A stretch of DNA of 64,000 nt from a virus, in the IMG/VR virus record IMGVR_UViG_3300021963_007714, positions 45,029-109,028 of that record. One strand, written 5' to 3'. Numbering within the stretch: the first letter of the stretch is position 1; each line of letters opens with the position of its first letter. The notes under the pieces are model-generated. The model saw nothing but the letters and a program-made list of their open reading frames with translations, had not been told where the DNA came from and searched no databases. Shown in pieces: positions 36,718 through 62,492 of this stretch. Both the position numbers and the translations under genes were made by a program.

Positions 36718-38613
36718 ATGAGTAAAGTCATCGGTATCGATCTTGGTACCACCAATAGCTGCGTGGCAGTCATCGAAAATGGAAATCCCCGTGTAATTGA
36801 AAATTCAGAAGGTGCTAGGACTACACCTAGTATAATTGCCTACGGCGATGAAATCCTTGTAGGAGCTCCTGCTAAACGACAGGCAGTTACTAACCCAAAA
36901 AACACAATCTATGCCAGTAAACGTTTGATTGGTCGAAAATTCAAAGAAGAGGCTGTTCAAAAAGATATTGATCTTATGCCATATAAAATCATTGAGGCAG
37001 ACAATGGCGATGCTTGGGTAGAGGCACATGATCAAAAATTAGCGCCTCCACAGATTTCTGCAGAAGTCCTGCGTAAAATGAAAAAAACAGCAGAAGATCA
37101 TTTAGGCCATGAAGTTACACAAGCAGTGATTACGGTACCTGCTTATTTCAACGACAGTCAACGTCAAGCAACCAAAGATGCTGGTCGTATTGCTGGACTA
37201 GAAGTTCTGCGTATTATCAATGAGCCTACTGCGGCTGCTCTTGCCTATGGTGTGGACAAGACGGACAAAAAAGATCGTAAGGTCGCTGTATACGATCTAG
37301 GTGGTGGTACATTTGATATTTCTATTATTGAAATAGCCAATATAGATAACGACAAACAGATTGAAGTTTTAAGTACCAATGGTGATACATTTTTAGGTGG
37401 TGAGGATTTTGATCAACGTATTATGGACTATCTGGTATCTGAGTTCAAAAAAGAACAAGGTGTAGACCTTACAAAGGATGTTTTGGCACTCCAGCGTTTA
37501 AAGGAAGCAGCTGAAAAAGCTAAGATTGAATTAAGTAATAGCAGTCAAACCACCGTAAATTTACCATATGTTACGGCAGACGCAAGCGGACCTAAACATT
37601 TGAACATTAGTATAACCAGAGCTAAATTAGAAAGTCTGGTAGATGAATTAATCCAACGTAGTATTCAACCTTGTCGTACAGCAATGACTGATGCTGGTGT
37701 TCAACCCAGTGATATTGATGAAGTAATCTTAGTCGGTGGTATGACTCGTATGCCTAAAGTTCAACAAGCAGTTGAAGAGCTGTTTGGAAAGGCACCACGT
37801 AAAGATGTCAATCCAGACGAAGCAGTAGCAGTAGGTGCTGCTATTCAAGGCGCTGTTCTTGTAGGGGATCGTAAGGATGTCCTATTATTAGATGTTACAC
37901 CATTGAGTTTAGGTATTGAAACTCAGGGCGGTGTAATGAGCAAGGTAATTAAGAAAAATACAACTATTCCAACTAAGACAAGTGAAATTTTCAGTACTGC
38001 TCAGGATAATCAACCAGCGGTAACTATTAAGGTATACCAAGGAGAAAGAGAACTAGTTGTTTATAACAAATTGCTAGGTGAATTCAATCTAGGTGATATT
38101 GATCCTCAACCCCGTGGGTTACCTCAAATCGAAGTTACTTTTGATATTGATGCTAATGGTATCTTAAAAGTCAGTGCTAAAGATAAAAAGACCAATAAAG
38201 AAGCAGAAATTACTATTAAATCTAGCAGTGGATTGAGCGAGTCTGAAATTCAACGTATGGTAAAAGATGCTGAAGACAATGCAGAATCTGATAAAAAACA
38301 GCGTGAACTAATTGATGCTAAAAATCAAGCAGAAGGACAACTCTATGCCACTAGAAAAACTCTCAGTGAAGTAGAGGAAAAATTAAGTCAGGAAGATAAA
38401 GATAAAATCACTGCTGCTATTAAAGATCTAGAAACTGCTATGTCTGAGTCAGATATGGAAGCAATTAAGACAAAAACAATGGATCTCACTAATGCCATGT
38501 TGCCGGCAATTAATGCCAAACAGGCTGCTGATAAAGAGAAACAGGAAAAACCAGCTACAGACAACAAAGACAAGGATGTAGTTGACGCAGAATTTACTGA
38601 AGTCAAAAACTGA
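36718..38613 (+). CDS. dnaK: Chaperone DnaK (Hsp70)
   Basis: [33 protein letters not shown] and C-terminal VVDAEFTEV. Confidence 0.98.
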
Positions 38614-41803: not shown

Positions 41804-42172
41804 ATGGAAATATTACTATTAATGTTTCTGCTACAGGCCAAACATTGGTACGCAGACTTTTTTATTCAAACTTACGATCAAACAGTTAAAAAGGGTCTAT
41901 ACGGTGATCCTGTTGGTATAAGCCATAGCCTAGATCATATGTTATGGACACTGATAGCCCTACTGTTATTCAGTTTAATTCACCCTGTTGAACTTGTAAT
42001 GATTTTAACAATTAGTATATTAGAAGGGTTCGCTCACTATCATATTGATTGGTTTAAGGTAAAATATGGTATAAAAGATATGTACAAGCCTAGATTTTGG
42101 AGAGAATTTGGCGCTGATCAAATGGCTCACCATATCTGTTACTTGTTTATTATTTGGTACTTATTACTATGA
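41804..42172 (+). CDS. DUF3307-family membrane protein
   Basis: KHWYADF..Q, HSLDH, HYHIDW and DQMAH. Confidence 0.8.
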   Translation: MEILLLMFLLQAKHWYADFFIQTYDQTVKKGLYGDPVGISHSLDHMLWTLIALLLFSLIHPVELVMILTISILEGFAHYHIDWFKVKYGIKDMYKPRFWREFGADQMAHHICYLFIIWYLLL

Positions 42173-43572
42173 TAATTTCAGGTGGTATGACCCTAGTAGG
42201 TGGTGTTACATACTTTGACAGTGCAGGTTATACAAGTTTTTTATATCCCCCTAGTCCGGATACCTATGTAGCATTTAGACAAGAAATCGCCTATGCGTAT
42301 GGATATTCCGGTAGTACTGCTGGCCATCTGTCTACAGCTACCCAAAATGTAGTTTATGATATAGGGACAGGTAATTTTACAATAGAAGCAAATGTTTATC
42401 TAACAACAACACCTGGCGCCGGTTCAATTCGTGGTATTTTAAACAAAGGTGCTATTGGACCTAGTGGTTGGACATTTGGAGTTAATGATACCTTACGACT
42501 TTACATGTATGGTTCTAGTCCTACATTTGGAGGACCAACTAGCACACAGATTATAGCATTGAATAGTTGGACATATGTTGCCGTGGTGAGAGAAGGAACT
42601 GGTGCTAATCAAACTAAATTTTATATAAATGGATACTTAGCTGGAACTGGAACATGGGCCCACCCTATGACAAATACTGACCCTCTACGAGTGGGTACGT
42701 TCGCTGCTTCAGGTACTTATGTAAATTGGATAGGAGCAATTACAGATCTTAGATGGTCAAATTTTGCTAGAACAATAGAAGTACAGGGATGTACTCCTAA
42801 GCCGTTTGATTCAGGAACTATACTAGTAACAGGTAATACTTCAACCCACGCATACGCACTTAGTGGTAATACATGGACAAATTGGCTCCTACAGAGTTCT
42901 CCTAGTCCCACTGTTAGTAGCAATCCTGTAAGCGTAGATGTTGTCACTAATCAATTAAACATTGGATTTGGTGACTATACTATTGAATGCTGGATATATA
43001 GAACAAGTGGAGGTACTATGGGAATTTACAGCCATGGACTAAATGATTTAAGCCAAGGGTATCATATCTATATTAATGCATCTAATAGGTTAGTAGTTAC
43101 CCATGATGCAATTATTGTGTCATCCGGTAGCATTGACTTAAACAATAATACTTGGTATCACATAGTTGTACAACGTTCGGGACAAACTTCACTGAAGACA
43201 TTTGTGAATGGACAGCAAGATAATTTCCAATCAGTTGGTGCTTTCTCAATAAACTTCGCCTACACATATCAGAATAGAATTGGTTATTATAAATCAGGTG
43301 GTTGGATTTCTAGTCCATTCCGAGGATATATAAGTAATTTTAGAATATCTAAAGGAACTAGATATCCAACTGGTAGCGGACAAGGATTTACTAGGCCCAC
43401 TGAACCATTTAGATGGGACAGCAGTACTTTAATTCTTACTGCCAACAAACAATCATTATCTTATACATTTGATGGGAGCCTCGATCAATATTGGACTTCT
43501 GCTGCAGCAGGTTCGACTACACCGACAACAACTATACGATCTCCGGAAGTATCAAATTTTAATCCATTTTAG
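42169..43572 (+). CDS. Tandem LamG/ConA-like lectin-domain virion protein
   Basis: Two domains with FTIE/YTIECW, WTYVAVVR/WYHIVVQR, YING/FVNG and GYISNFRI; start MIISGG at 42169. Confidence 0.8.
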   Translation: MIISGGMTLVGGVTYFDSAGYTSFLYPPSPDTYVAFRQEIAYAYGYSGSTAGHLSTATQNVVYDIGTGNFTIEANVYLTTTPGAGSIRGILNKGAIGPSGWTFGVNDTLRLYMYGSSPTFGGPTSTQIIALNSWTYVAVVREGTGANQTKFYINGYLAGTGTWAHPMTNTDPLRVGTFAASGTYVNWIGAITDLRWSNFARTIEVQGCTPKPFDSGTILVTGNTSTHAYALSGNTWTNWLLQSSPSPTVSSNPVSVDVVTNQLNIGFGDYTIECWIYRTSGGTMGIYSHGLNDLSQGYHIYINASNRLVVTHDAIIVSSGSIDLNNNTWYHIVVQRSGQTSLKTFVNGQQDNFQSVGAFSINFAYTYQNRIGYYKSGGWISSPFRGYISNFRISKGTRYPTGSGQGFTRPTEPFRWDSSTLILTANKQSLSYTFDGSLDQYWTSAAAGSTTPTTTIRSPEVSNFNPF

Positions 43573-43629
43573 TAGATACACTTATTAAAACGTTCTGTTC
43601 CTATAAATATATGTAACTTAGGAGCGAAT

Positions 43630-44103
43630 ATGAAGAAGATTGCGTTAGCATTGTTTTTACTACCATTGCTGGCTCATGCGGAACTGGTTCAACAATTCAA
43701 AAGTCCAAGTTTTAATGGACAAAATTGGAGCAGCCATGTTCTTACTATAGACAGTATAGAAAAAGCACGTAAAGATAATATAGAAAGTCAAAAGAAATCA
43801 GAAGAGGCTAAATTGTTAGCCGAAGCACAGAATACACCATTGGCTCGCTTTATGAGCCTATTTACCAGCCAAGTATATGCGCAATTAGCCAGCCAACTTA
43901 GCACAAATCTATTCCAAAATAAATGTCAAGGTGCAGACGGATTAGCGATTCCAGGATGTGTAAACCCTTCAAGCGGAGTGTTTAGTTTAGACGGCAATAC
44001 TATTACCTGGGTAAAAACAGACAAAGATGTTACTTTAACAGTGGTTGATAAGGCAGGCACCGTGACTGTTGTTAAAGTTCCTATAGCAAGTTTTGGATTC
44101 TAA
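43630..44103 (+). CDS. csgF: Curli assembly protein CsgF
   Basis: Signal peptide, then ELVQQFKSPSFNG (CsgF N-terminal motif); directly upstream of csgG. Confidence 0.8.
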   Translation: MKKIALALFLLPLLAHAELVQQFKSPSFNGQNWSSHVLTIDSIEKARKDNIESQKKSEEAKLLAEAQNTPLARFMSLFTSQVYAQLASQLSTNLFQNKCQGADGLAIPGCVNPSSGVFSLDGNTITWVKTDKDVTLTVVDKAGTVTVVKVPIASFGF

Positions 44104-44104
44104 T

Positions 44105-45016
44105 ATGAAGAACACGTTAAAATTATCAATATTAGCAGCAAGTATAGCCTTAGGTGGTTGTAATGCCATGCGTCCTGTTTTAGAGGCTAAATTAGATACT
44201 CCTCCCAGAGTTAGCCAAAACATGCTGAAAGACCTAAATACCATTCCAGCACCAATGGGTCCTCCAATCACTGTAGCGGTATACAACTTTAGAGACCTAA
44301 CAGGACAACGTAAGCCAAGTAATACATTGAGCCTTTTCAGTTCAGCGGTAACACAAGGTGCAGAAAGTTATCTAATTAAGACATTGGCAGAAGCAGGCAA
44401 TCGTCAATGGTTTACTGTGGTAGAACGTGTGGGCTTAGATAACCTGCTTAAAGAGCGTCAAATGATCAAGCAGACTCGTGAGATCTATGATGGCGAAAAA
44501 GCCAAAATGCTACCCCCAATGACGCTGGCAGGAGTTATCATTGAGGGCGGTATTATAGATTATAATTCAAACACACTGACAGGTGGTACCGGAGCACGTT
44601 GGTTGGGCATAGGGCCATATACTCAATACACACAAGATTTGGTCGTAATTAGTCTAAGACTGGTCAGTGTTCAAACAGGTGAAGTATTAACCAGCGTCAC
44701 TATTGAAAAGAACTTACTATCTACAGCAGAAGGTGTAACTACATTTAAATTCTTTAACACTGCCACAAGAGCCTTTGAATTAGACTCAAGTCAGACTTTT
44801 AATGAACCAGGCAACTATGCTCTGCGTTCGGCCATAGAAGCGGGTGTAATAGAACTTATTCGTCAAGGAGAAAGCCAAGGACTGTGGAAATACAAGGAGC
44901 AAGTGAAACATGACGTGGTTCCGACACCGCAGCCCAAAACTGCCCCCCAGTCTACTGAATCAGCCCCCAATCAAGGATTGGTCGATTCCAGCGGCCAGCC
45001 AATTAAAACAAACTAA
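44105..45016 (+). CDS. csgG: Curli secretion channel lipoprotein CsgG
   Basis: Lipobox LGGC; VAVYNFRDLTGQRK, SAVTQG, WFTVVERVGLDNLLKERQMI and EGGII.Y. Confidence 0.92.
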   Translation: MKNTLKLSILAASIALGGCNAMRPVLEAKLDTPPRVSQNMLKDLNTIPAPMGPPITVAVYNFRDLTGQRKPSNTLSLFSSAVTQGAESYLIKTLAEAGNRQWFTVVERVGLDNLLKERQMIKQTREIYDGEKAKMLPPMTLAGVIIEGGIIDYNSNTLTGGTGARWLGIGPYTQYTQDLVVISLRLVSVQTGEVLTSVTIEKNLLSTAEGVTTFKFFNTATRAFELDSSQTFNEPGNYALRSAIEAGVIELIRQGESQGLWKYKEQVKHDVVPTPQPKTAPQSTESAPNQGLVDSSGQPIKTN

Positions 45017-45033
45017 ACAAGGACGGAGCGAAT

Positions 45034-45900
45034 ATGAAGAAAACATTACTAACACTGCTGATGATGGCAGCATTTCCGGTAGCAGCACAAACCACAGTGG
45101 CAGCACCAACTCCAACAACTCCCGTTGATCCTACAGTAGGGGTCATGGCAGGCACCGCCACAGCACTGACACAGAGTGCTACCAATCGTGTGTTCATTGA
45201 TCAAGACGGTGAGCGTCCCAATGTCAGCATTACACAGACAGGCAGTGGTAATACTGCTGGCAGTGATTCAACCTATAGCAAAATTATAACAGGTATTGTA
45301 GATAGACTAAACGCAGGCGGTGTGCGTCAATATACAGTAAACAGTGCTATATACCTACGTGGTGATGATCATAACATTATCTTAAACCAAGTGGGCAATA
45401 ATAACACCATTGCTATGAAGGCAATAAGCCCAGATGTAGCAGCACAGGGAGTAGATATTACTATTCAACAATTAGGCAACAGTAACTTTGCTGATGTTCT
45501 ATGTGGATCTGGATCAAGTTCAGCAGGAACAGCATTAACAGGCTGTAAAGATGCTACATTAAATTGGAAGTTTACAGGTAACAGCAATGCCATACAGTTT
45601 CGTGGCACAGGTGACGATCTAAACAGTCAGATCACAGTGACCAGTGGTAATAGCAATGAATTTAATATTGACTCAGTGGGTAATAAGCACAATCAAACTA
45701 TAACCGTGGCAGGTAATTTCAATGTGTTTAATATCAGTCAAACTGGCAATAGTGCTTATGGTAGCAGCATATGGATGGATGTAAACGGAGCCAGCAATAG
45801 ATTCGCTATCAGCCAAGCAGGCACACAAGATAATGTAGTTAAAATTACCACAGTGGGCAGCAGTGGAGTTTGGAATATAATTCAAAGAACAACACCATAA
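45034..45900 (+). CDS. Secreted curlin-repeat protein (CsgA/CsgB-like)
   Basis: Signal peptide and roughly 11 repeats of I-x-Q-x-G-x-x-N type (ITQTGSGN, LNQVGNNN, IQQLGNSN, ISQAGTQDN). Confidence 0.75.
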   Translation: MKKTLLTLLMMAAFPVAAQTTVAAPTPTTPVDPTVGVMAGTATALTQSATNRVFIDQDGERPNVSITQTGSGNTAGSDSTYSKIITGIVDRLNAGGVRQYTVNSAIYLRGDDHNIILNQVGNNNTIAMKAISPDVAAQGVDITIQQLGNSNFADVLCGSGSSSAGTALTGCKDATLNWKFTGNSNAIQFRGTGDDLNSQITVTSGNSNEFNIDSVGNKHNQTITVAGNFNVFNISQTGNSAYGSSIWMDVNGASNRFAISQAGTQDNVVKITTVGSSGVWNIIQRTTP

Positions 45901-45909
45901 GGAGTTGTC

Positions 45910-47064
45910 GTGAGATATTTCTGTTTAAGTTTATTGTTTTGCGCCACCACGGCCTGGGCTGACATAGGGTCAGTTACAGAGGTCACAGGCAGTGGCACAA
46001 TAAAACGTGGTAAAGATTCTGTGACAATAGCCAAGGGAACGGTGATTCAAACCAATGATAAGATTGAAACAAAGAATGGCAAGGTTAAAATTACTTTTAA
46101 AGACAATACTACAGTATCAGTCACGGAACACAGTAGTTTGGTTATTGATGATTTTGTTTATGATCCTAAAAATGCTCAGGGAGGAAAACTTGGTCTAAAG
46201 GCCACTGGTGGTGCTGTGCGCTATGTTAGTGGTGCCATAGCCGGTGCCAACCCTAATGCTGTGAAAATCAATACACCTACTGCGGCAATTGCTGTGCGTG
46301 GCACTGACTTTGTCATGGCAGTAAACGAAGTTGGAGCATCCACTGTGATCCTCATGCCCAGTTGTGAAGATAATGTAGGACCTAATGTTAGAGGTGCCAT
46401 ATGTGGTAGTGGAGCCATTGATGTAGAAAGTGGCCCTAACCTTGTAACAATGAATCGTCCCTTTCAAGCCACTATGGTAGAAACAGCGGGCGCACCTCCT
46501 ACACCCCCCATGACTATTAATATATTTGGCACACCAGTAGGAACTAATTTGTTAGTGAGCCCACCGCCTACTATGAGTGGTGCGCCGTTGGTAGCAGCAG
46601 CAAGAGCCGCAGCGGCAGCAGCAGGTGTTCCAGGAGCGAAAAAAGATGACTCAAAGAAAGAGAGCAAAGAAGAGAGCAAAGATGGTGGTGATAACTCAGA
46701 ACAAGTCGCAAGTAACCAGGCGGCAGACGCTAAAAAGGCTCAAGAAGCCCCTGCTTCAGACACTAAAACCACAGTAGCACAAGCAGAAGTTAAAGAAGAA
46801 ATTCCTGTCACTGCTGCCAAAGAAGAAACAAAGTCAGAAGATCCAGAATGGCTACGTAAGATTTATAAAGATAAATCAGAGACCAAACAGGTAGGTTGGG
46901 CTGTAGAATCAGTTAGCCAAAATGGTCGTAATGTAGCACAGGTTTCATTACAGATGAATACTCAGGTGCAGGTCAGTGTCACACAGGACATGCTGAACGT
47001 GAGCAATAACTTCTCAAGTGGTCGTCCTCAGGGACAGATTATAATTAATCAAACATACAGATGA
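45910..47064 (+). CDS. Secreted FecR-domain protein
   Basis: Signal peptide; IGSVTEVTG, D.IET..G...ITFKDNT...V...S.LVIDDFVYD and TPTAAIAVRGTDF; Pro/Ala/Lys/Glu-rich linker. Confidence 0.85.
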   Translation: MRYFCLSLLFCATTAWADIGSVTEVTGSGTIKRGKDSVTIAKGTVIQTNDKIETKNGKVKITFKDNTTVSVTEHSSLVIDDFVYDPKNAQGGKLGLKATGGAVRYVSGAIAGANPNAVKINTPTAAIAVRGTDFVMAVNEVGASTVILMPSCEDNVGPNVRGAICGSGAIDVESGPNLVTMNRPFQATMVETAGAPPTPPMTINIFGTPVGTNLLVSPPPTMSGAPLVAAARAAAAAAGVPGAKKDDSKKESKEESKDGGDNSEQVASNQAADAKKAQEAPASDTKTTVAQAEVKEEIPVTAAKEETKSEDPEWLRKIYKDKSETKQVGWAVESVSQNGRNVAQVSLQMNTQVQVSVTQDMLNVSNNFSSGRPQGQIIINQTYR

Positions 47065-48902
47065 AATACGGATATCGTTGGACTTCGGGTTTTGGCATTG
47101 TTATACTGGTGCTGTTCCTCTCCTTGGTTTATTTTTGGGCTGAACCTGCTCGTGCTGATGTCACTGATCTACAACTACCGGTAGGTAAAGTATTCGACAG
47201 TCAATGGAATGTAGGAGCCTGCACCCAATCAAGCGGAACCTGCTCAGTAAGCGGCCTTGTATCAAGTCAACTTTACAGTCCATCAGCAGGATGGAAAAGT
47301 TTTACCTCAGGTATGACTGTGCGTTTTAGTTATAATAACGGCAGTGTAGCAGGCAATCCCATACAGTTAGAATTATGGAACAGTAACAATACTCTTAACA
47401 CTGTGATGATTCCTTATGGTAGATTCATTGCTTTTGAAAATGGTGCCAATGAAGGTCGTCAATATATGTTTGTGGATAACACCACTTGGTATGGATATTA
47501 TATTAACCTACAAGCATCTACATCTACCACTAGTTCAACTTGGAATCATGGTGGCACTGCCACTACAGCACAATATCAAGCACTAACACAGGCCATGGTC
47601 ACTGCGCCACCGCCACCTGCTATGCCCACAAACAATGTAGCACAGACCAGTGGGTCAAGCCTATATCCCTATACCAGAGGAACCAGTAATCGTGGATTTA
47701 CAATACAATGGTGGGACTGCTGTGGCAGCGGTGGTTGGAATATGTCAAATGCTACTTGGAGTCAAGGCGGCACAGGCAGCGGCTTTTATGCTTGGGTCAC
47801 AGGATATCTCCGCTGGCCAGGTGCTCAAGACGGTGTAAGTAGAACCATATGGTTTAGAACAGGTTGGGATGACAAGCACAAATTGTTTATCAATGGCACA
47901 CAGATAACCAATGGTGATTGCTGTGCCTATGCCTATGGATCATATACTGCTAAACCTGGTGAATTTGTATATATTCATTTTTATACAGATAACAGTGGCG
48001 GTGGACCTACCAGTTGGGAAATAGCCTGGGATCCACAGGGTGACGGCACCTATGAAGTTATAGGTGGCGAAAGCGTAGGATTAGAATCAGGTGGTGGTTC
48101 AAGTTGGTATTCAAGCACAGAGACTGCCGCACAGATCAATCAAAAAAATTCAGATCGTGCTCGATTAGCAGCATTGGCACAGGGTAACAAATTGTATATC
48201 GCACAAAGCGGTAGTTACGCAGATGTTGATATTATACAAGAAGGTTCAACAAACTATATACAAGGACGTGGTGGAGTAGGCGATGCTCAACTCATAGGCA
48301 ATTATAATACACTGAGAATAAGACAAGGTGATGGATTAGGATCAGGTAAGAACCTAATCGAGTTTGATGTCAATGGAACAAGCAATACTGTGACACTGCT
48401 ACAAGGATGGAACGGAACTTGGCCCTCTGTCAGCAAGGATGGCATTGAAAGTGGCGGACACTACAGTGACCTTAAACTGACAGGCAACAATAACACAGTG
48501 ACATTTCAACAGGCCAACACAGGAGCGGCCAATTCCGGACACTATAACAGATCAGAGATCACAGGTGACACTAATACAGTGTTAGTAAGACAATTATGGG
48601 GCAACGCAGCCTATCACACTTTCTTCAGTAACATAACAGGTAATAGCAACAATGTAGATGTATTACAGGCAGGCGCAGCAGGCAAGTATATGGATCTTAC
48701 CTTGACAGGAAATGGACATACTGTAGTCGCGACCCAGGATGGTGCAGGTAGTCATAGAGCCACTATTAACCTAAGTAGAGTGCTGGGGTCATCCACATTA
48801 AATCTTACGCAGCAAGGGACAGTGGCACAACAATATAACATTACACAGGCCTGCGCTAATCTAAGTGGTTGCTCAGTGACAGTAACACAGGGCACACCAT
48901 AA
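47061..48902 (+). CDS. Secreted protein with PA14-like domain fused to C-terminal curlin repeats
   Basis: N-terminal signal/TM; 'TGYLRWP...FRTGWDDKHKLFING...YTDNSGG' (PA14-like); about 10 Q-x-G-x-x-N/H repeats at the C-terminus. Confidence 0.7.
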   Translation: MKYGYRWTSGFGIVILVLFLSLVYFWAEPARADVTDLQLPVGKVFDSQWNVGACTQSSGTCSVSGLVSSQLYSPSAGWKSFTSGMTVRFSYNNGSVAGNPIQLELWNSNNTLNTVMIPYGRFIAFENGANEGRQYMFVDNTTWYGYYINLQASTSTTSSTWNHGGTATTAQYQALTQAMVTAPPPPAMPTNNVAQTSGSSLYPYTRGTSNRGFTIQWWDCCGSGGWNMSNATWSQGGTGSGFYAWVTGYLRWPGAQDGVSRTIWFRTGWDDKHKLFINGTQITNGDCCAYAYGSYTAKPGEFVYIHFYTDNSGGGPTSWEIAWDPQGDGTYEVIGGESVGLESGGGSSWYSSTETAAQINQKNSDRARLAALAQGNKLYIAQSGSYADVDIIQEGSTNYIQGRGGVGDAQLIGNYNTLRIRQGDGLGSGKNLIEFDVNGTSNTVTLLQGWNGTWPSVSKDGIESGGHYSDLKLTGNNNTVTFQQANTGAANSGHYNRSEITGDTNTVLVRQLWGNAAYHTFFSNITGNSNNVDVLQAGAAGKYMDLTLTGNGHTVVATQDGAGSHRATINLSRVLGSSTLNLTQQGTVAQQYNITQACANLSGCSVTVTQGTP

Positions 48903-48920
48903 ACTATATATAAATAGAAG

Positions 48921-50039
48921 ATGGCTTTATTAATTTCTGGAGGTGTAAGAATTATAGGCAGTACAATAAGTGCGTTACCCGTAACACCACCACCTCTGAA
49001 TATTGGAGAAAGTTTCGGTGGAGGTTATTACGCCGGGTTGTATTCAGCAAGTGGAGACGGAAATCCTACTCACTTTTTAGTTGTATCTCCAGGGTCATCT
49101 GAAACTACTTTATCTTGGAAGTCGTCTCTTACAAATACACCGGGTACAAGTAGTTTATTCGATGGTAGTGCTAACACTGCCGCTATGACAGATGCTTCTC
49201 ATCCTGCGGCAGAATACTGTGGTAATTTAACAACTGGAGGTTATAGTGATTGGTATCTACCTTCTAGATATGAGTTGGCTATAATATATTCAAACACAAG
49301 GGCATGGCCTGGCGATAATGTTACAACGTCCGGTATTAACCCTTACTCGGTATTACCCCGTACTTCTAATTACTCTCTTTATGTACCTGGAGAAGCCACA
49401 TATGCAACTGTATTTAGAAACGTAACAGCACAATTTAATGGAGGTCTTTATTGGACGAGCTCTTCATCTGCCTCACCTACTGCTTGGTTTATCAATACTA
49501 CTGATGGAACTGAAAGCGTTGATTTTAAAGATCAAAATTATACTGTTAGAGCTATAAGAAAAGTACCTTACTATACACAACAAACTGGAGTATCTTACGG
49601 ACCGTATAGATACTGGAGAATGTATATAACCAAGGTAAGGGAAAGTTCAAATCTATCTGATTGTCAAATGGCTGAATTCAAGTTTCAAGTAGATGGTATA
49701 GATAGAGATCTTTACGGAGCTACCTTAACAAATCCTGGAGGTGTGGTAACCGGTCAGGAAGAGGTTTATAGATTAATTGATAATTCAATGTTTTATAAAT
49801 TTTATAATGCAGGCCATTATACTAATGGGACCACTGATATAAGGTTTGATTTTGGGACTCCTGTAAGTTTTACCGGTTATCGATGGGCAACAGCTAATGA
49901 TGTAATATCAAGAGATCCAGAATCCTGGACTATACAGGCAGGTGCTACAACAGCAAGTTATACCACTATTCACACTGTAACAGGATATACAGCAACCACC
50001 GAACGAAACACTTGGCAAAATCCATGGACGTTCACCTAA
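48921..50039 (+). CDS. DUF1566/Lcl (C-type-lectin fold) plus discoidin/F5-8-like virion protein
   Basis: GGYYAG, GGYSDWYLPSRYEL, YWTSS and VRAIR, followed by YRYWRMYIT and RDPESWTIQ. Confidence 0.75.
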   Translation: MALLISGGVRIIGSTISALPVTPPPLNIGESFGGGYYAGLYSASGDGNPTHFLVVSPGSSETTLSWKSSLTNTPGTSSLFDGSANTAAMTDASHPAAEYCGNLTTGGYSDWYLPSRYELAIIYSNTRAWPGDNVTTSGINPYSVLPRTSNYSLYVPGEATYATVFRNVTAQFNGGLYWTSSSSASPTAWFINTTDGTESVDFKDQNYTVRAIRKVPYYTQQTGVSYGPYRYWRMYITKVRESSNLSDCQMAEFKFQVDGIDRDLYGATLTNPGGVVTGQEEVYRLIDNSMFYKFYNAGHYTNGTTDIRFDFGTPVSFTGYRWATANDVISRDPESWTIQAGATTASYTTIHTVTGYTATTERNTWQNPWTFT

Positions 50040-50158: not shown

Positions 50159-51076
50159 ATGCAAATTACAGGCGGAATATTACTCGGTCAAGGCTTTAAC
50201 ATAAGTCCACCATTTTTTTACACAGTAGATGTGCTTATTTTAGGTGGAGGAGGAGGTGGAGGCGCCGGAAGTAATTGGCAAAACAATGCCAATGGCGGAG
50301 GTGGAGGCGCCGGCGGATACAGGTATATATCCAGTGTAACAGTACAATCTGGAACTGTGTATCCCATGATAGTAGGTCAGGGTGGTATAGGTTCGATTAC
50401 CACAGGAGGGGTAGGTGACATCAATGCCACTTATACTGAAGGAACTAGCGGAACAACAAGTACAGCCTTTGGATATGCTGCTGCAGGTGGTGGCCTTGGT
50501 GGTTCATATACTCCACTAAATGGTATTACCTCAGGTAGGAACGGAGGCTCTGGTGGAGGAGGTGGCGGAGCAGGTGGAGGTCAGCCTACAAGTGGCGGAA
50601 CAGGAAATATACCCGTTACTGTACCAAGCCAAGGAAATAATGGCGGTAGTAATTTTACCAATGATGCTAGCGGAGCCAGCGGTGGAGGAGGTGGTGCTAG
50701 CGCAGCAGGTGCTTCGGGTGCGGCAAATGTAGGAGGTAATGGAGGAGCAGGCAGATATCCGGATATTTGGTATGCTTCAACCTCTGGTGTTTTTGTCTGC
50801 GGTGGAGGAGGTGGTTCTGGATCAACCAATGGCACAGGTGGAGTAGGTGGCGGTGGCAATGCATCTAGAACACCAGGAGCTAACTGTGCCGGCACAGATG
50901 GTCTAGGTGGAGGCGGAGGTGGAACCGGTCTAGGATCAGGCAGAGGAGGTAGTGGAGGCAGAGGTAGAATTTTGGTTAGGTACCCTACTAATATTAGAGC
51001 TAGCGGAGGTACTATTGTTATATATAATGGGTATGTATACCATGACTTTACCTCATCAGATTTTTTTCAAGCTTAA
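50159..51076 (+). CDS. Glycine-rich virion-associated protein
   Basis: GGGGG tracts with VDVLILGGGG...GRILVRYP...YHDFTSS, the architecture of phage Gly-rich domains. Confidence 0.75.
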   Translation: MQITGGILLGQGFNISPPFFYTVDVLILGGGGGGGAGSNWQNNANGGGGGAGGYRYISSVTVQSGTVYPMIVGQGGIGSITTGGVGDINATYTEGTSGTTSTAFGYAAAGGGLGGSYTPLNGITSGRNGGSGGGGGGAGGGQPTSGGTGNIPVTVPSQGNNGGSNFTNDASGASGGGGGASAAGASGAANVGGNGGAGRYPDIWYASTSGVFVCGGGGGSGSTNGTGGVGGGGNASRTPGANCAGTDGLGGGGGGTGLGSGRGGSGGRGRILVRYPTNIRASGGTIVIYNGYVYHDFTSSDFFQA

Positions 51077-56317: not shown

Positions 56318-56339
56318 ACTAGTAGCAAGGAGATCAATG

Positions 56340-56426
56340 ATGGCAAAACTAAAACAATGTTGGTGTTGGGTATGTGAAAAACTTCGTATGTGTTATTGCG
56401 AATGTAAGACTGCCTGCCGTTGTTGA
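56340..56426 (+). CDS. Cys-rich micropeptide (28-29 aa, 8 Cys)
   Basis: AAGGAG SD at 56327; (M)MAKLKQCWCWVCEKLRMCYCECKTACRC-stop. Confidence 0.6.
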   Translation: MAKLKQCWCWVCEKLRMCYCECKTACRC

Positions 56427-56458
56427 TCTCAATCTAATTAAACTCAAAAGGAAATTAA

Positions 56459-59080: not shown

Positions 59081-61135
59081 ATGAGAAAGATATTATTAAA
59101 TCCATATTGGGCCCTATTAACCCTCGTAGCCGTGTTAGCACTGAGATTTTTTGATCCCAGTTTTGTTGAGTCGGTTAGACTACGCTATTTTGATCAACTT
59201 ATAACCAGTCAACCAAAGGTTGAAGTTCCTGTTCATACTGTTAACATTGATGAACAGACTTTGGAAAAATTAGGTCAATGGCCCTTTCCAAGAGGCGACT
59301 ATGCTAAAATGATCAACGATCTATACCAGCGTAACGCAGGACTTGTTGTATTCAATGTGTTAATGCCCGAATTTGATCGTTTCAAAGAGGACAAAGAATT
59401 AGCACAATATCTGAAGTCTCACCCAGTTGTTCTTCCTATATTAGGGCATACCAAAGACCGTAATGCCACACAGCCACCGCATACACAGGTAGTTGGACAA
59501 GATCCACAGGGCAAGGTGGTTGAATATCCAGGAGTTATAAGTTCAGTGGCAATAATAACAGGTCAGGCCACAGGTTATGGGGTAGTTAATACCTTTCCGG
59601 AAATAGATGGTGTTGTTCGTCGTATGCCCCTGGTAATTGCCAGCCAAGGTAAGTTACATCCAGCATTGGCTTTAGAAACACTGCGAGTAGCAGCACAAGA
59701 TCCTCGTGTTCAAATAAAGATAGGAGACATTGGTGTAGAGGCTTTGCGTGTGCCCAAGATAGGCAAGATACCGACAGATCCATTGAGTCGTATATGGATT
59801 GATTGGTCAGCACAGCCTAAAGAACATAGTTTTATGTCGTTGCCCGATGACTTCAAAGGTGAAATAGTCATTGTGGGTTTATCAGCAGCGGGCTTGGCTA
59901 ATCCTGTGGCCACAGCCAGAGGAGAAGTATGGCCTCACTTTTTACAGGGCACGGTGTTAGGAACACTAACTACACAGAGCCACATACAGAGACCCGACTG
60001 GGCAGATGCCGCCGAATTAGGTGCTATTGCTGTATTTGGCATTTTAATTATATTCTTATCAAGGTGGGTCTATGTCGGTATCGGATTTTATCTTATTCTT
60101 GCTGGTTCATGCGTGGCAGGCAGCATGTACGGGTATAGTAATTATAGGTGGCTTATTGATGCTACTTTGCCTACCCTTAGTATTCTTCTTGTAGCACTAC
60201 ATGCCTATACAGTGAAGTTTATTTCAGAATTCCTACAGAAACAGCAGATACGCAAACAGTTTCAAAGTTATCTATCACCAGATCTTGTGGCCAAACTGAT
60301 AAAAGATCCTAGCCTACTTAAACTGGGCGGTGAAGAAAAAGAACTCTCAATCATGTTTACAGATGTGCGCGGCTTTACATCAATATCAGAACACTATGGC
60401 AAAGATGTTCAAGGTCTTACAAAAATCATGAATCGTTATATGACTGCCATGACACGCAAGATATTAGAAAATCATGGCACATTAGACAAGTATATTGGTG
60501 ATGCTCAAATGGCGTTTTGGAATGCTCCATTAGATGAAACTATTCACTGTAAGGAAAGCGTCAAGGCAGCACTGGAAATGTTAGAAGATCTAAAGGTATT
60601 CAATGATGAAATTACCAAAGAAGGAATCCCTGCGTTTGGCATGGGCATTGGCATTAACACTGGGGTTGTTGTTGTCGGCAATATGGGCAGTGAGCAACGC
60701 TTTGACTATACTTGTTTGGGTGACGCAGTTAATTTGGCCAGCCGCTTAGAAGGTCAGAGCAAGAACTATGGCGTCCTATTGGTCATTGGTCCTGTAACAG
60801 AAAGCAGATTAGAGGGCACAGCATTTAGCCTACCTCTAGATTGTATTGCGGTCAAGGGCAAACACGAAGGTGTAAACATTTTTACAGCGTTTCATAATCC
60901 ACCTGAAAATCTCAAGGCACAATGGCTAGCAGACAAAGAACGTCATGTTGAGATGTTGGGTTATTATCGTGCTCAACAATGGAACAAGGCCTTGAAAGCA
61001 GTAGAAGCACTTAAAGGAAAATTCAATGGACAAATGGATCACTACTATGAACTATGGACCGAACGCATTCATGAAATGGCCAGCGCTGGATTACCCGCAG
61101 ATTGGGATGGCGTCTTTAGAGCAACCAGCAAGTGA
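59081..61135 (+). CDS. CHASE2-domain class III adenylate cyclase
   Basis: CHASE2 (IDE..L...GQWPFPR, DGVVRR.PL), three TMs, and cyclase motifs MFTDVRGFT, DKYIGDAQM and YTCLGDAVNLASRLEG. Confidence 0.93.
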   Translation: MRKILLNPYWALLTLVAVLALRFFDPSFVESVRLRYFDQLITSQPKVEVPVHTVNIDEQTLEKLGQWPFPRGDYAKMINDLYQRNAGLVVFNVLMPEFDRFKEDKELAQYLKSHPVVLPILGHTKDRNATQPPHTQVVGQDPQGKVVEYPGVISSVAIITGQATGYGVVNTFPEIDGVVRRMPLVIASQGKLHPALALETLRVAAQDPRVQIKIGDIGVEALRVPKIGKIPTDPLSRIWIDWSAQPKEHSFMSLPDDFKGEIVIVGLSAAGLANPVATARGEVWPHFLQGTVLGTLTTQSHIQRPDWADAAELGAIAVFGILIIFLSRWVYVGIGFYLILAGSCVAGSMYGYSNYRWLIDATLPTLSILLVALHAYTVKFISEFLQKQQIRKQFQSYLSPDLVAKLIKDPSLLKLGGEEKELSIMFTDVRGFTSISEHYGKDVQGLTKIMNRYMTAMTRKILENHGTLDKYIGDAQMAFWNAPLDETIHCKESVKAALEMLEDLKVFNDEITKEGIPAFGMGIGINTGVVVVGNMGSEQRFDYTCLGDAVNLASRLEGQSKNYGVLLVIGPVTESRLEGTAFSLPLDCIAVKGKHEGVNIFTAFHNPPENLKAQWLADKERHVEMLGYYRAQQWNKALKAVEALKGKFNGQMDHYYELWTERIHEMASAGLPADWDGVFRATSK

Positions 61136-61262: not shown

Positions 61263-62492
61263 ATGGACAAAAAATTAACCACCATACTGTGTAGTGATGT
61301 TATAGGATACAGTCGTATGATGGGAGAGAATGAACATCTAACTCTCCAAAAATTAGATCAATGTAGACAGATCATTGATCCCAGTATAGCAAAATATAAT
61401 GGCCGTATTTTTAACACAGCAGGTGATGCTGTGTTGGCAGAGTTTGCCAGTCCCACTGACGCTGTAAAATGTGCTGTAGACATTCAAAACTCAATCAACA
61501 AACTTAATACGGACATGCGTTGGCGTATTGGCCTACATCTAGGCGAAGTCTATGCCTACGGTGATAATCTCATGGGCGACACCGTGAACATTGCTGCTCG
61601 TATAGAAAGCACTGCTGACTTGGGAGGTGTCTGCTTTAGCAGTCAGGTCTTTGATGCTATCAGTGGCAAGGTTACCATGGATATAGAATGGCGAGGACCA
61701 CAGTCATTTAAGAATATTAAAGATCCTATCAAAATCTATGCTGTAAAAATAGCAGGTGCCCAAAAAAACCCCAATGTAGTTCATAAAGAAACTGTGAAAT
61801 ATAGCAAGGAACAATTGATCAAGAGTGTGATAAATGACAAACCTGCCGTAGGTAAAACTCTACAAGATGCTCAAAATCTTAAACGTGATCGTCAGTTTGG
61901 TCCTGCTGTTCGTGTGTTAATGTGGCGTATTACAAAAAAGTGCGGAGCCAGTCTAAATGAACTGTTAGATATGAGCCAAAAAGAATTAGTGCCTGTAGAA
62001 CTAAGGCATGTTGTAGTGGCCATACTCAGTGAATATTGTAAAGGTGTAGACAGTGATCGAGCCATGTTAATTTACAAATTACTACAAGGACCGTTAGGTG
62101 TTCATCGTAGCCTTGGTTTACAGTTTTTAAAACAAGCGGCCAAGACCAATCCCGAAGCGCAGATGGAATATAGTTCTACAATTATGGAAGATCCACACAG
62201 CAGCCAAAATGAAATTACTGATGCTGTAGAACAGTTGGTCACTATGGCTCGAAGAAAGAGTCAACCTGCTATGTTGAAGTTATGTGACTACTATAATAAG
62301 GTGGGTGAAAAACATCAACAGTTTTTATGGTTGTGGGTATTGAGAGGACTGTTTGAACCTTCGGCACAGAACAAACTTCAACTGTTAATGAATACAATTA
62401 GCAAGACTGATTTTACTAATTGGAAAATAGAAGGGGAATCGCTGTTAGATGAAATTAAATTTAAGAACGATCCTGGTAACTATGGTTATTAA
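61263..62492 (+). CDS. Soluble class III nucleotide cyclase with helical-repeat (Sel1/TPR-like) C-terminus
   Basis: ILCSDVIGYSRMM, FNTAGDAVLAEF, RIGLHLGEV, GDTVNIAARIE and FKNI. Confidence 0.85.
   Translation: MDKKLTTILCSDVIGYSRMMGENEHLTLQKLDQCRQIIDPSIAKYNGRIFNTAGDAVLAEFASPTDAVKCAVDIQNSINKLNTDMRWRIGLHLGEVYAYGDNLMGDTVNIAARIESTADLGGVCFSSQVFDAISGKVTMDIEWRGPQSFKNIKDPIKIYAVKIAGAQKNPNVVHKETVKYSKEQLIKSVINDKPAVGKTLQDAQNLKRDRQFGPAVRVLMWRITKKCGASLNELLDMSQKELVPVELRHVVVAILSEYCKGVDSDRAMLIYKLLQGPLGVHRSLGLQFLKQAAKTNPEAQMEYSSTIMEDPHSSQNEITDAVEQLVTMARRKSQPAMLKLCDYYNKVGEKHQQFLWLWVLRGLFEPSAQNKLQLLMNTISKTDFTNWKIEGESLLDEIKFKNDPGNYGY

Follow-up and report, generated by a model that had tools for sequence, protein, structure and literature searches.

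Introduction

The closest described systems are bacterial curli and a viral type VIII (curli-like) secretion module. In E. coli, the N-terminal peptide of CsgF inserts into the barrel of CsgG, and the CsgG channel is about 1 nm wide. The curli of E. coli and Salmonella (csgBAC-csgDEFG) comprise a CsgG lipoprotein pore, a CsgF with a CsgG-binding N-terminal peptide, and two curlin-repeat subunits with Q-x-G-x-x-N rungs and a beta-solenoid fold. The viral module, which also includes FecR and an adenylate cyclase, was described in marine phages by Wittmers et al. in 2022 (PMC9599517). Aggregation and superinfection roles have already been proposed for it, and some viral modules lack the cyclase (PMC9599517).

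The window analysed here is a stretch of 64,000 nucleotides from a large T4-like, freshwater/brackish phage, whose record of 109 kb has about 30% completeness and whose relatives reach 383 kb. Among public runs, near-identical DNA occurs mostly in freshwater and lake samples. The window contains an operon that is a further member of the published module. As in the pelagiphages (HTVC008M, Melnitz; PMC9599517, PMC7029224), csgF, csgG, a curlin, FecR, and a second curlin follow in the same order, an adenylate cyclase is also present in the genome, and the second curlin of HTVC008M also has PA14; the proteins are 27–50% identical. However, the phage belongs to a different, much larger T4-like lineage and is mostly freshwater, whereas no curli operon was reported in freshwater pelagimyophages (PMC7029224, Zaragoza-Solas et al. 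2020). Moreover, its cyclase is shifted 10 kb downstream, with a second cyclase-domain ORF behind it, and its second curlin (Cur2) has an extra N-terminal domain.

The features listed above for enterobacterial curli are shared by the phage operon. In contrast to those curli, the phage genes form a single late operon with FecR and a CHASE2 cyclase attached, the subunits are 2–4 times longer and carry Cys pairs, and one of them bears fused lectin-type domains. An earlier note on this DNA had found csgE and csgC unrecognisable; indeed, neither gave a Pfam match in the 109-kb record (about 30% of the genome), where CsgD was likewise not detected.

Operon layout and late transcription

Five + strand ORFs occupy positions 43630–48902 of the window, between two late promoters:

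43602..43609, + strand, T4-type late promoter TATAAATA, 20 nt before the start of csgF
43630..44103, + strand, csgF, 157 aa, signal peptide (Pfam CsgF, E 8e-9, above cut-off; phrog_35372)
44105..45016, + strand, csgG, 303 aa from ATG, outer-membrane lipoprotein pore (Pfam CsgG, E 1.7e-49)
45034..45900, + strand, Cur1, 288 aa, curlin-repeat subunit with signal peptide (Pfam Curlin_rpt, E 2e-6)
45910..47064, + strand, FecR-domain protein, 384 aa, GTG start, periplasmic (Pfam FecR, E 6e-10)
47061..48902, + strand, Cur2, 613 aa (fold model; no Pfam family on sequence)
48909..48916, + strand, next TATAAATA late promoter, 5 nt upstream of the ORF starting at 48921

The gene order and tight packing described in the earlier note are borne out. 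The gaps between csgF, csgG, Cur1, and FecR are 1, 17, and 9 nt, the FecR stop and Cur2 start overlap as ATGA, and a search for + strand terminator-like sites within the operon found none. The TATAAATA copy at 48909..48916 marks the 3' boundary of the operon. The promoter that had been proposed upstream of it also stands, with an AGGAG ribosome-binding site between TATAAATA (43602..43609) and the csgF start. The eight copies of TATAAATA in the window are close to the 8.7 expected by chance, but seven of them are on the + strand, each 4–21 nt upstream of an ORF start. Furthermore, 70 of 79 related loci have the core TAAATA ahead of csgF, compared with 14% of background windows. The promoter at 43602 and the conservation of its core point to late-infection transcription of the curli-like module. 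The public runs containing the stretch included no RNA run among the matches listed.

All five genes are under purifying selection, with dN/dS of 0.03–0.13 across them and across each Cur2 domain; strain differences in the public runs are spaced at 3 nt. Judged by eye from their N-termini, all five proteins have predicted Sec-type export signals, in agreement with the earlier reading. CsgG has the lipobox LGGC, while CsgF, Cur1, the FecR-domain protein, and Cur2 each have a hydrophobic stretch followed by an AxA-type site.

The CsgF and CsgG pore

The assignment of a csgF/csgG pair to the start of the operon is upheld by both Pfam matches. For a profile of 24 CsgF orthologues, the best PDB match is E. 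coli CsgF (6l7a_J, E 7.8e-4). The motif QFKSPSFNG at the N-terminus of mature CsgF aligns to E. coli FQFRNPNFGG, and CsgF retains the CsgG-binding N-terminal peptide. Phage CsgG, for which a TTG at 44093 is an alternative start, aligns full-length to E. coli CsgG (6lqh_A, E 3.6e-48) and is, by alignment, a homologue of that outer-membrane lipoprotein pore over its whole length. Its lipobox aligns to E. coli LSGC with the Cys conserved. In the constriction loop, F56 is conserved and the other two of the three E. coli constriction residues are altered (Y51 to S, N55 to L). As the CsgG-binding motif of CsgF is conserved, divergence of the CsgF/CsgG pair is not supported.

The curlin subunits and the lectin-type head

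Cur1 has about eight Q-x-G-x-x-N rungs, a conserved Cys pair (C157/C171), and dN/dS of 0.03–0.06. Its orthologue profile matches CsgA of Pontibacter (8c50, E 4e-21) and of E. coli (8enq, E 2e-6). Cur1 is homologous to the last 240 residues of Cur2 (hhalign probability 99.5%, E 2e-22), and both are curlin beta-solenoids. Homology, fold, and synteny thus agree with the proposal that both fibre subunits are present. Cur2 is composed of the following parts:

47061..47156, + strand, signal peptide, residues 1–32 (hydrophobic core, then A-R-A, then D)
47172..47591, + strand, domain 1, residues 38–177, beta-rich (AF2 model, pLDDT 60–85)
47682..48104, + strand, PA14 lectin-type domain, residues 208–348 (fold of model)
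48174..48899, + strand, curlin beta-solenoid, residues 372–613 (fold of model)

The consensus of 62 homologues retains an AxA site. Domain 1 has dN/dS of 0.04–0.06 and received no family assignment from fold lists or the Atlas. Pfam, which recognises CsgF, CsgG, FecR, and the curlin repeats of Cur1, finds no family in the Cur2 sequence at E<=0.001, PA14 included. According to the model, Cur2 nevertheless carries a PA14 lectin-type domain with a DD motif ahead of the solenoid. Foldseek matches the domain to MpPA14 (6x8d, E 8e-5), and VIA gives Z 13.3–13.8 to the Marinomonas PA14 (rmsd 2.5–2.8 over about 132 residues), 15.1–15.7 to RsgI PA14, and 10.4–11.6 to Flo/Epa adhesins. Against CsgA structures, the solenoid model scores Z 20.2 (Pontibacter, 8c50_A) and 11.6 (E. 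coli fibril), and its G-x2-N-x5-Q rungs are invariant across homologues. Additionally, the HTVC008M protein at the Cur2 position scores directly with both Pfam PA14 and Curlin_rpt. The suggested PA14-curlin fusion and its solenoid fold are thereby substantiated, as are the DD motif (WDDKH at residue 269) and the two vicinal Cys pairs of the PA14 domain (220/221 and 287/288). A further conserved pair is C598/C604.

In PA14 lectins, the DD of the motif holds the sugar-binding Ca2+ (Flo5 and MpPA14 structures). The PA14 adhesin lectins, Marinomonas MpIBP and yeast Flo/Epa, share with Cur2 the fold (Z 10–14) and the DD of the D-D-x-x-x-L-x-I-x-G motif. However, the Cur2 domain is 9–19% identical to them, its ligand binding is predicted, and its support is a curlin solenoid instead of an RTX or GPI-anchored stalk. 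Among 59 proteins at the Cur2 position, 166 to 803 aa long, Pfam recognises Curlin_rpt in 23, F5/8-type C in 15, PA14 in 3, and GLEYA in 1. The head is therefore swappable among relatives.

The FecR-domain protein and the CHASE2 cyclase

The FecR-domain protein consists of a signal peptide, a FecR fold (residues 47–213), a disordered Lys/Glu/Ala linker (244–309), and a small C-terminal beta domain (313–381). Its model matches the C-terminal signalling domain of PupR (6ovm_R, Z 14.1, rmsd 2.8 over 135 residues). It shares this periplasmic fold with the FecR/PupR anti-sigma regulators of TonB-dependent cell-surface signalling, but it has neither their cytoplasmic anti-sigma N-domain nor a transmembrane helix; its FecR domain comes directly after the signal peptide. 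In genomes, its partners are CHASE2 sensors instead of ECF sigma factors or TonB-dependent transducers. For these reasons, a role as an iron sensor or regulator is probably to be rejected. The window has two cyclase-domain ORFs:

59081..61135, + strand, CHASE2 sensor adenylate/guanylate cyclase, 684 aa (Pfam CHASE2, E 2e-38; Guanylate_cyc, E 8e-19)
61263..62492, + strand, second cyclase-domain ORF, 409 aa, without CHASE2 (Pfam Guanylate_cyc, E 8e-9); module membership uncertain

The former has AATAAATA just upstream and comprises a TM segment, a periplasmic CHASE2 domain, a TM cluster, and a cytoplasmic class III cyclase. It lies 10 kb downstream of the operon, behind other genes; in most related loci, its orthologue follows the operon within 0–6 kb. 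Bacterial relatives of the phage FecR protein adjoin CHASE2 proteins with HD, histidine-kinase, hybrid-kinase, or cyclase outputs. As this neighbourhood persists whatever the output, FecR is probably the periplasmic partner of the phage cyclase. The 150–178-aa stand-alone CHASE2 partners lack the mid domain and the C-terminal part that T8SS-linked FecR proteins additionally carry. In S. meliloti, the genes of the FecR-domain protein SMc02177 and the CHASE2 cyclase CyaD1 are presumably neighbours. The cAMP pathway that CyaD1 drives has SMc02177 as a target, and deletion of CHASE2 in CyaD1 leads to constitutive cAMP synthesis (PMC5498481). A LysM-FecR and CHASE2-kinase operon is known from Burkholderia and Pseudomonas (PMC5192318). 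The FecR protein embedded in the fibre operon and its periplasmic location had been recognised correctly, but its recurrent partner, the CHASE2 sensor, had been missed.

Distribution of the module

In all 80 IMG/VR loci examined, taken from 324 contigs with a FecR relative, the genes follow the order csgF-csgG-Cur1-FecR-Cur2-cyclase as far as the sequence extends; in a few, Cur1 or Cur2 is not recognisable. Two cultured phages, HTVC008M of Pelagibacter and Melnitz of Methylophilales, share this order. The claim that the operon is unusual is not supported, since its subunits and FecR belong to a conserved and published module (PMC9599517). Alphaproteobacterial clusters in Henriciella and Caulobacteraceae MAGs (loci L092–L095) show csgF-csgG-curlin-FecR-CHASE2 cyclase in identical order, with the cyclase directly after FecR, and their FecR is 35–37% identical to phage FecR over residues 1–224. 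Unlike the phage module, these clusters are chromosomal (52–57% GC, metabolic genes on both flanks), and no lectin-headed second curlin was recognised in them; in L093 and L094 there are two plain curlins each, and in L092 a single one of 504 aa. The module papers cited here do not mention these chromosomal clusters, the CHASE2 nature of the cyclase, the FecR-CHASE2 neighbourhood in unrelated bacteria, the swappable Cur2 head, or the module in a phage lineage of about 370 kb that is mostly freshwater.

Interpretation

The operon is best explained, with somewhat more confidence than doubt, as a phage-encoded form of the viral type VIII module that builds a late lectin-headed surface fibre and whose FecR protein is linked to the CHASE2 cyclase. 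The host Sec machinery would export all five proteins, and CsgG with CsgF would form the pore. Cur1 would be secreted unfolded and stack into a fibre on the infected cell, while the Cur2 solenoid would join or seed this fibre and display a predicted Ca-dependent sugar-binding head. The infected cell may thus adhere to particular glycans, such as those carried by neighbouring host cells or particles. Roles in aggregation, anti-grazing, or shielding are guesses. Some observations count against this reading, among them the altered constriction residues of CsgG and the absence of a Pfam PA14 match. CsgE and CsgC/H are undetected in the 109-kb record, which leaves gating and chaperoning of the subunits without an explanation. 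Both curlins have Cys pairs, and Cur2 is large and multidomain; if oxidised or folded in the periplasm, Cur2 should not pass the narrow CsgG channel. Moreover, Buchholz et al. did not observe Melnitz-infected cells to clump (PMC9004378).

The same absence of clumping and of the gate CsgE from the 109-kb record (about 30% of the genome) would suit a pore acting by itself, in which CsgG, with or without CsgF, is a lysis-timing channel (pinholin- or secretin-like) or a nutrient/cofactor uptake channel and the repeat proteins are accessory or vestigial, as proposed for Melnitz and pelagimyophages (PMC9004378, PMC7029224). This is distinctly improbable: both curlin genes occur in essentially all loci and have dN/dS of 0.03–0.14 and invariant rung motifs, and the claimed absence of csgA/B is wrong at the sequence level. 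The conserved CsgF motif gives no support to divergence of the pair, and CsgG is a lipoprotein of the outer membrane, whereas holins sit in the inner one. A curli-like coat that masks receptors, traps virions (superinfection exclusion), or deters grazers, without binding new hosts, has a low probability, too. The operon is among the late genes, and enterobacterial curli matrices limit phage access according to work cited in PMC9599517, but exclusion that is expressed late would hardly have time to bring a benefit, a swappable lectin head is not needed, and FecR and the cyclase are left without a role.

Alternatively, the module may be mainly a sensor, with the lectin-tipped solenoid, CsgG/CsgF pore, FecR-like adaptor, and CHASE2 cyclase as one trans-envelope signalling chain that reports cell or particle contact, or secretion state, as cAMP/cGMP, adhesion being secondary. 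Nearly all loci with a long enough flank have the cyclase as well as the operon, the cyclase directly follows FecR in the bacterial clusters, and late-type promoter cores precede both operon and cyclase. By the PupR precedent, the FecR fold is an adaptor from an outer-membrane protein to the inner membrane, and the additional parts of T8SS-linked FecR proteins fit this picture. Even so, such a chain seems unlikely: FecR contact with CsgG or curlin and the cyclic-nucleotide target are hypothetical, the cyclase is distant from the operon in the window, and modules without it have been reported by Wittmers et al. (PMC9599517). In the lectin-headed fibre favoured here, the likeliest task of the FecR-like protein is binding or controlling the phage cyclase (59081–61135) at its periplasmic CHASE2 domain, which would couple the envelope module to cAMP/cGMP production.

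Operon organization and phage context

Five closely packed ORFs on the + strand (43630-48902) encode CsgF, CsgG, a curlin-repeat subunit (Cur1), a FecR-domain protein and a second curlin protein of 613 aa (Cur2). The intergenic gaps measure 1, 17 and 9 nt, the FecR and Cur2 genes share an ATGA overlap, and no + strand terminator-like sites were found inside the operon. HMM searches, as proposed in the earlier note, returned CsgF (E 8e-9), CsgG (1.7e-49), Curlin_rpt (2e-6) and FecR (6e-10) for the first four ORFs, all above the curated cut-offs, and no Pfam family for the fifth. Together with the fold matches of Cur2 and profile comparison, they confirm the operon as that note had read it, namely csgF-csgG-curlin repeat-FecR-(PA14-like + curlin).

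The motif TATAAATA occurs eight times in the window, against 8.7 copies expected by chance, and seven of the eight lie on the + strand just 5' of ORF starts. Owing to this placement, the copies behave as T4-type late promoters, and the seven + strand sites provide a map of late transcription units.

Positions of TATAAATA on the + strand
43602, +: 20 nt 5' of csgF
48909, +: directly 3' of the operon
17866, 19438, 30874, 39141 and 41791, +: other sites, each immediately 5' of an ORF start

Among related loci, the exact motif precedes csgF in only 4 of 79, and only the core TAAATA is general at this position. The 109-kb IMG/VR record, about 30% complete according to CheckV, encodes RNR, virion proteins, an endolysin domain and a DNA polymerase fragment. 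One structural protein is 40-45% identical to its T4-like cyanomyophage counterparts, and related contigs extend up to 207-383 kb. Contamination by, or mis-binning of, a bacterial operon was ruled out, as phage late promoters bound the operon and phage genes surround it. When compared with the close relatives L006 and L008, all five genes have dN/dS values of 0.03-0.13 and the three Cur2 domains values of 0.04-0.21, and strain differences in public contigs fall at 3-nt spacing. By these measures, none of the operon genes is decaying.

Other features of the window
17-8644: ORF of 2875 aa at the window start; next come a virion structural protein (1039 aa) and a protein of 1129 aa that combines endolysin/chitinase-like and phosphohydrolase parts
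36718-38613: full-length DnaK (Hsp70; phrog_22485 match, E 4e-277), 66-70% identical to DnaK in phage-collection records apparently of bacterial origin
42154-43572, 48921-50039, 50159-51076: LamG/ConA-like, Lcl_C (DUF1566-type) and glycine-rich-domain proteins flanking the operon
54110-57472: PhoX alkaline phosphatase (735 aa, Pfam E 5e-127), then a PstS-like phosphate-binding protein (PBP_like_2)

The PhoX and PstS-like pair looks like phosphate-acquisition auxiliary genes. None of the three kinds of flanking protein carries a signal peptide, and they probably serve as fibre or adhesin proteins of the virion; secreted and virion-borne binding modules would therefore stand side by side.

The CsgG/CsgF pore

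The phage CsgG aligns with E. coli CsgG over its full length (E 3.6e-48), with the lipobox Cys in register. In the constriction loop, F56 is kept, and Y51 and N55 of the E. coli protein are replaced. CsgF is too divergent for a single-sequence phmmer search against the PDB, which gave no relevant match, whereas a profile of 24 viral and bacterial orthologues has E. coli CsgF as its best PDB match (E 7.8e-4). Within the family, conservation is highest at the mature N-terminus (QFksPsFsG), where the motif F-x-x-P-x-F-x-G lines up with E. coli FQFRNPNFGG. This is the peptide seated inside the CsgG barrel in CsgG:CsgF structures. Conservation of such a CsgG-binding peptide argues against the suggestion, made on the basis of the methylophage Melnitz, that CsgF and CsgG of phages no longer cooperate (PMC9004378).

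Of the components of the type VIII secretion (curli) system, the CsgG pore, the CsgF peptide and the curlin-repeat subunits are matched in the window, whereas CsgE and CsgC/CsgH are without a match in the partial record. In agreement with the earlier note, which found csgE and csgC unrecognisable, Pfam CsgE and Tafi-CsgC gave no match at E<=1 in these 109 kb (about 30% of the genome). According to a survey cited in PMC9599517, alphaproteobacterial curli systems do without CsgC, CsgD and CsgE.

Curlin subunits and the exchangeable head

For Cur1, single-sequence phmmer against the PDB gave no relevant match, and a profile was needed. The orthologue profile, with about eight Q-x-G-x-x-N rungs, matches CsgA of Pontibacter (8c50, E 4e-21) and of E. 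coli (8enq, 2e-6). BLASTP between Cur1 and Cur2 is not significant (E 0.71); hhalign comparison of their profiles places the whole of Cur1 on Cur2 residues 367-599 (probability 99.5%, E 2e-22), indicating that the two are homologous. A structure model of Cur2 was built with 62 homologues and has a pLDDT of 75.7.

Parts of the Cur2 model, from the N-terminus (residues)
signal-type helix
38-177: beta domain
disordered Pro-rich linker
208-348: PA14 fold
372-613: beta-solenoid

The C-terminal part models as a beta-solenoid, as the earlier note had expected of the repeat proteins, and of 48,161 chains compared, CsgA 8c50 matches it best in structure (Z 20.2; E. coli CsgA fibril, Z 11.6). For residues 38-177, an Atlas feature search gave no usable match, and the fold lists gave no assignment, the whole-protein lists being taken up by matches to the PA14 and solenoid regions. 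Among the phage's own proteins in the 109-kb record, no paralogue of the Cur2 head was found.

The PA14 region is modelled with a pLDDT of about 90 and resembles MpPA14 of Marinomonas (Foldseek E 8e-5; Z 13.3-13.8, rmsd 2.5-2.8 over 131-134 residues), as well as the PA14 structures of RsgI, Flo, Epa and protective antigen. The Pfam PA14 profile misses it, and matches the counterpart in the Pelagibacter phage HTVC008M (E 2.7e-6) and 3 of 59 proteins at the Cur2 position, down to 8e-14. The PA14-like domain with WDDKH and two CC pairs, noticed earlier from the sequence, is thus borne out by fold. WDDKH stands at residue 269, in WDDKHKLFING, and the CC pairs at 220 and 287. The DD is conserved in the homologue consensus and sits in the D-D-x-x-x-L-x-I-x-G motif of the PA14 family, which holds the sugar-binding calcium in Flo5 and MpPA14.

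The 59 distinct proteins at the Cur2 position range from 166 to 803 aa, and Pfam recognises Curlin_rpt in 23, F5/8-type C in 15, PA14 in 3 and GLEYA in 1. Additionally, Cur2 homologues in a large protein collection carry CBM4_9. The head of the second curlin is exchangeable among relatives, and such a lectin-type head would speak for adhesion to specific glycans more than for a simple shield or a pore alone.

Distribution in phages and bacteria

Blastn of the operon against cultured phages gave no match, and relatives were found by protein searches only. By tblastn, csgG and FecR were located in HTVC008M and in four Melnitz isolates. These records hold the five genes in identical order, followed by an adenylate/guanylate cyclase, and the Melnitz annotation already reads CsgF, CsgG, curlin repeat, FecR domain and curlin repeat. 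An IMG/VR scan yielded 324 contigs with a FecR relative. In the 80 loci fetched, the order csgF-csgG-Cur1-FecR-Cur2 holds wherever the sequence reaches, with a few lacking a recognisable Cur1 or Cur2, and the cyclase lies 0-6 kb beyond the operon in most loci extending far enough. The co-occurrence of FecR and curlin genes with csgFG, on which the earlier interpretation depended, is seen across these loci. In that interpretation, the pore, the curlin subunits and the PA14-type head stand on homology, fold and synteny, but the supposed unusualness of the gene set does not, since the same set had already been published.

In the large protein collection, FecR has more than 2,000 matching protein clusters. 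Henriciella and Caulobacteraceae assemblies also contain the gene cluster, there with the cyclase gene next in line after FecR, at 52-57% GC and between genes for TonB-dependent receptors, acyl-CoA dehydrogenase and the like. Some bacterial curli clusters thus do include FecR and the cyclase. The cluster is rare: among 401 sampled Alphaproteobacteria genomes, 122 have a FecR domain match and the centre genome only has an orthologue of the type found with the type VIII (curli) secretion system, T8SS (E 7e-60). In a quick CsgG tree, the window groups with L006-L008 in a well-supported viral clade, and the bacterial clade stands among viral clades with support of 86-92 and long branches; this tree does not resolve the direction of transfer.

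One IMG/VR contig of 383,411 bases carries the module at both ends (L015 and L022, FecR identity to the query 53% and 54%), which may reflect a terminal repeat, a concatemer or the presence of two copies. In MAGs labelled Bacteroidetes (L086), Rhodobacteraceae (L087/L088) and Luteolibacter (L091), the module lies at 32-41% GC among many small ORFs; these look like phage contigs binned into bacterial MAGs. A histidine kinase upstream of the module is known from podoviruses (PMC9599517). It was sought in the loci L060, L063 and L077 and not found, the upstream genes being GroEL, RNR and unknowns.

Regarding habitat, operon DNA at 98-100% identity was found in one marine-labelled and three freshwater-labelled runs. 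Runs from 12 studies carry part of the stretch, most of them labelled freshwater, lake or aquaculture, and no RNA run is among those listed. The 2020 paper on pelagimyophages reports no curli operon in their freshwater members (PMC7029224).

The FecR-like protein and the CHASE2 cyclase

The phage FecR protein is predicted to be a free periplasmic FecR-fold protein, because its signal peptide runs straight into the FecR domain, it has neither an N-terminal cytoplasmic anti-sigma domain nor a TM-like window, and its model matches the periplasmic domain of PupR (Z 14.1). It shares the periplasmic domain with FecR-type anti-sigma regulators, whereas their anti-sigma domain and membrane anchor are absent, and a role as iron regulator accordingly finds no support.

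Cyclase genes of the window
59081-61135, +: CHASE2 sensor adenylate/guanylate cyclase, 684 aa, behind AATAAATA
61263-62492: second ORF, which has a class III cyclase domain but lacks a sensor domain, directly 3' of the former; its C-terminal 240 residues have no family assignment

The CHASE2 cyclase of the window lies 10 kb downstream of the operon and is not adjacent to it. Its layout of TM, periplasmic CHASE2, TM cluster and class III cyclase is shared with HTVC008M, Melnitz and the bacterial clusters. In a scan of one genome per prokaryotic species, FecR relatives adjoin CHASE2 proteins with cyclase (loci L092, L093, L107, L118), HD (L098), histidine-kinase (L100, L139) or hybrid-kinase (L128) output. 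The common element of these neighbourhoods is CHASE2, whatever the output domain, and the supposed iron regulator is better read as a putative partner of the CHASE2 cyclase. As of 2016, no ligand was known for the CHASE2 sensor domain, and Burkholderia and Pseudomonas have an operon of LysM-FecR and CHASE2-kinase (PMC5192318). The cAMP pathway that the CHASE2 cyclase CyaD1 drives in S. meliloti has the FecR-domain protein SMc02177 among its targets, and removal of CHASE2 leads to constitutive cAMP production (PMC5498481). Stand-alone FecR partners of CHASE2 proteins consist of the FecR domain only (150-178 aa). T8SS-linked FecR proteins are extended by a conserved mid part, which contains a Cys pair, and by a C-terminal part; these additions leave room for a second contact.

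Within the low-complexity FecR linker, AGC trinucleotides form a short run at 46593-46624. Public contigs pile up and break at 46593-46626 with depth spikes and loose ends, and the run is probably an assembly-confusing simple repeat. FecR residues 16-111 (45955-46242), which form the first part of the FecR fold, also resemble a 'cell surface anchoring domain' solved by NMR (5ix9; Z 6.8 and 25% identity, with 73 of 76 residues aligned; Foldseek rmsd 1.0), which we take to be the N-terminal retention domain of a Marinomonas RTX adhesin. The likeness is a possible lead on docking of FecR-like domains at outer-membrane pores.

Proposed function and alternatives

Homologies, folds, export-type N-termini, conserved gene order, selection and the late-type promoter are directly supported. 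On the picture built from them, Sec would export the operon proteins, the CsgG/CsgF pore would form in the host outer membrane, and Cur1 would be secreted and stack into a fibre. Cur2 would be incorporated, or act as a seed, through its solenoid and display a glycan-binding head, and FecR would act on the CHASE2 domain of the cyclase. Taken as a whole, this scheme is somewhat more likely than not. A sticky fibre could serve in host capture, particle attachment, shielding or sensing. The fibre picture has its weak points: CsgE and CsgC were not found in the partial record, the channel takes unfolded chains only, yet Cur2 is a large protein and Cys pairs occur in both curlins, and Melnitz cultures showed no clumping (PMC9004378).

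A rather improbable alternative is a trans-envelope contact sensor set up by the phage. Outside the cell, the CsgG/CsgF pore would hold a curlin fibre or stub with a lectin tip. The FecR-like protein would read it as an adaptor that sets the activity of the CHASE2 cyclase, and the cAMP/cGMP level of the infected cell would report nearby hosts or particles. The adaptor would have two parts, with the FecR domain towards CHASE2 and the extra mid and C-terminal parts towards the pore or its cargo. If true, the phage could time lysis or late gene expression by the proximity of hosts or particles, an envelope-based counterpart of lysis inhibition.

Relation to published modules and significance

The five-gene curli cluster was described in pelagimyophages, with "sibling capture" as the proposed role (PMC7029224). 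The Melnitz paper regarded csgA/B as absent and put forward a pore for the timing of lysis (PMC9004378). According to Wittmers et al. 2022, viral modules contain two CsgA/B proteins, FecR and an adenylate cyclase; these modules are ubiquitous in ocean viromes, expressed in metatranscriptomes and account for about 0.1% of assembled ocean viral proteins; an alphaproteobacterial origin was inferred, and aggregation, superinfection defence and import were discussed (PMC9599517). The order csgF-csgG-curlin-FecR-curlin plus adenylate cyclase of that viral T8SS module also occurs in the window. The core of the finding has therefore been published, and the locus is another member of the viral module, not a new kind of system. 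The full text of PMC9599517 does not mention PA14, CHASE2, lectin, discoidin, signal peptide or jumbo.

The three papers are at odds even over the presence of fibre subunits, and the locus and its relatives add that the subunits are real curlins. Moreover, exchangeable sugar-binding heads would favour adhesion to specific glycans and offer a direct assay. The module is also carried by very large freshwater phages and a few alphaproteobacterial chromosomes. The value of the locus thus lies in sharper testable hypotheses on lectin heads, FecR-CHASE2 pairing, bacterial counterparts and large freshwater phages.
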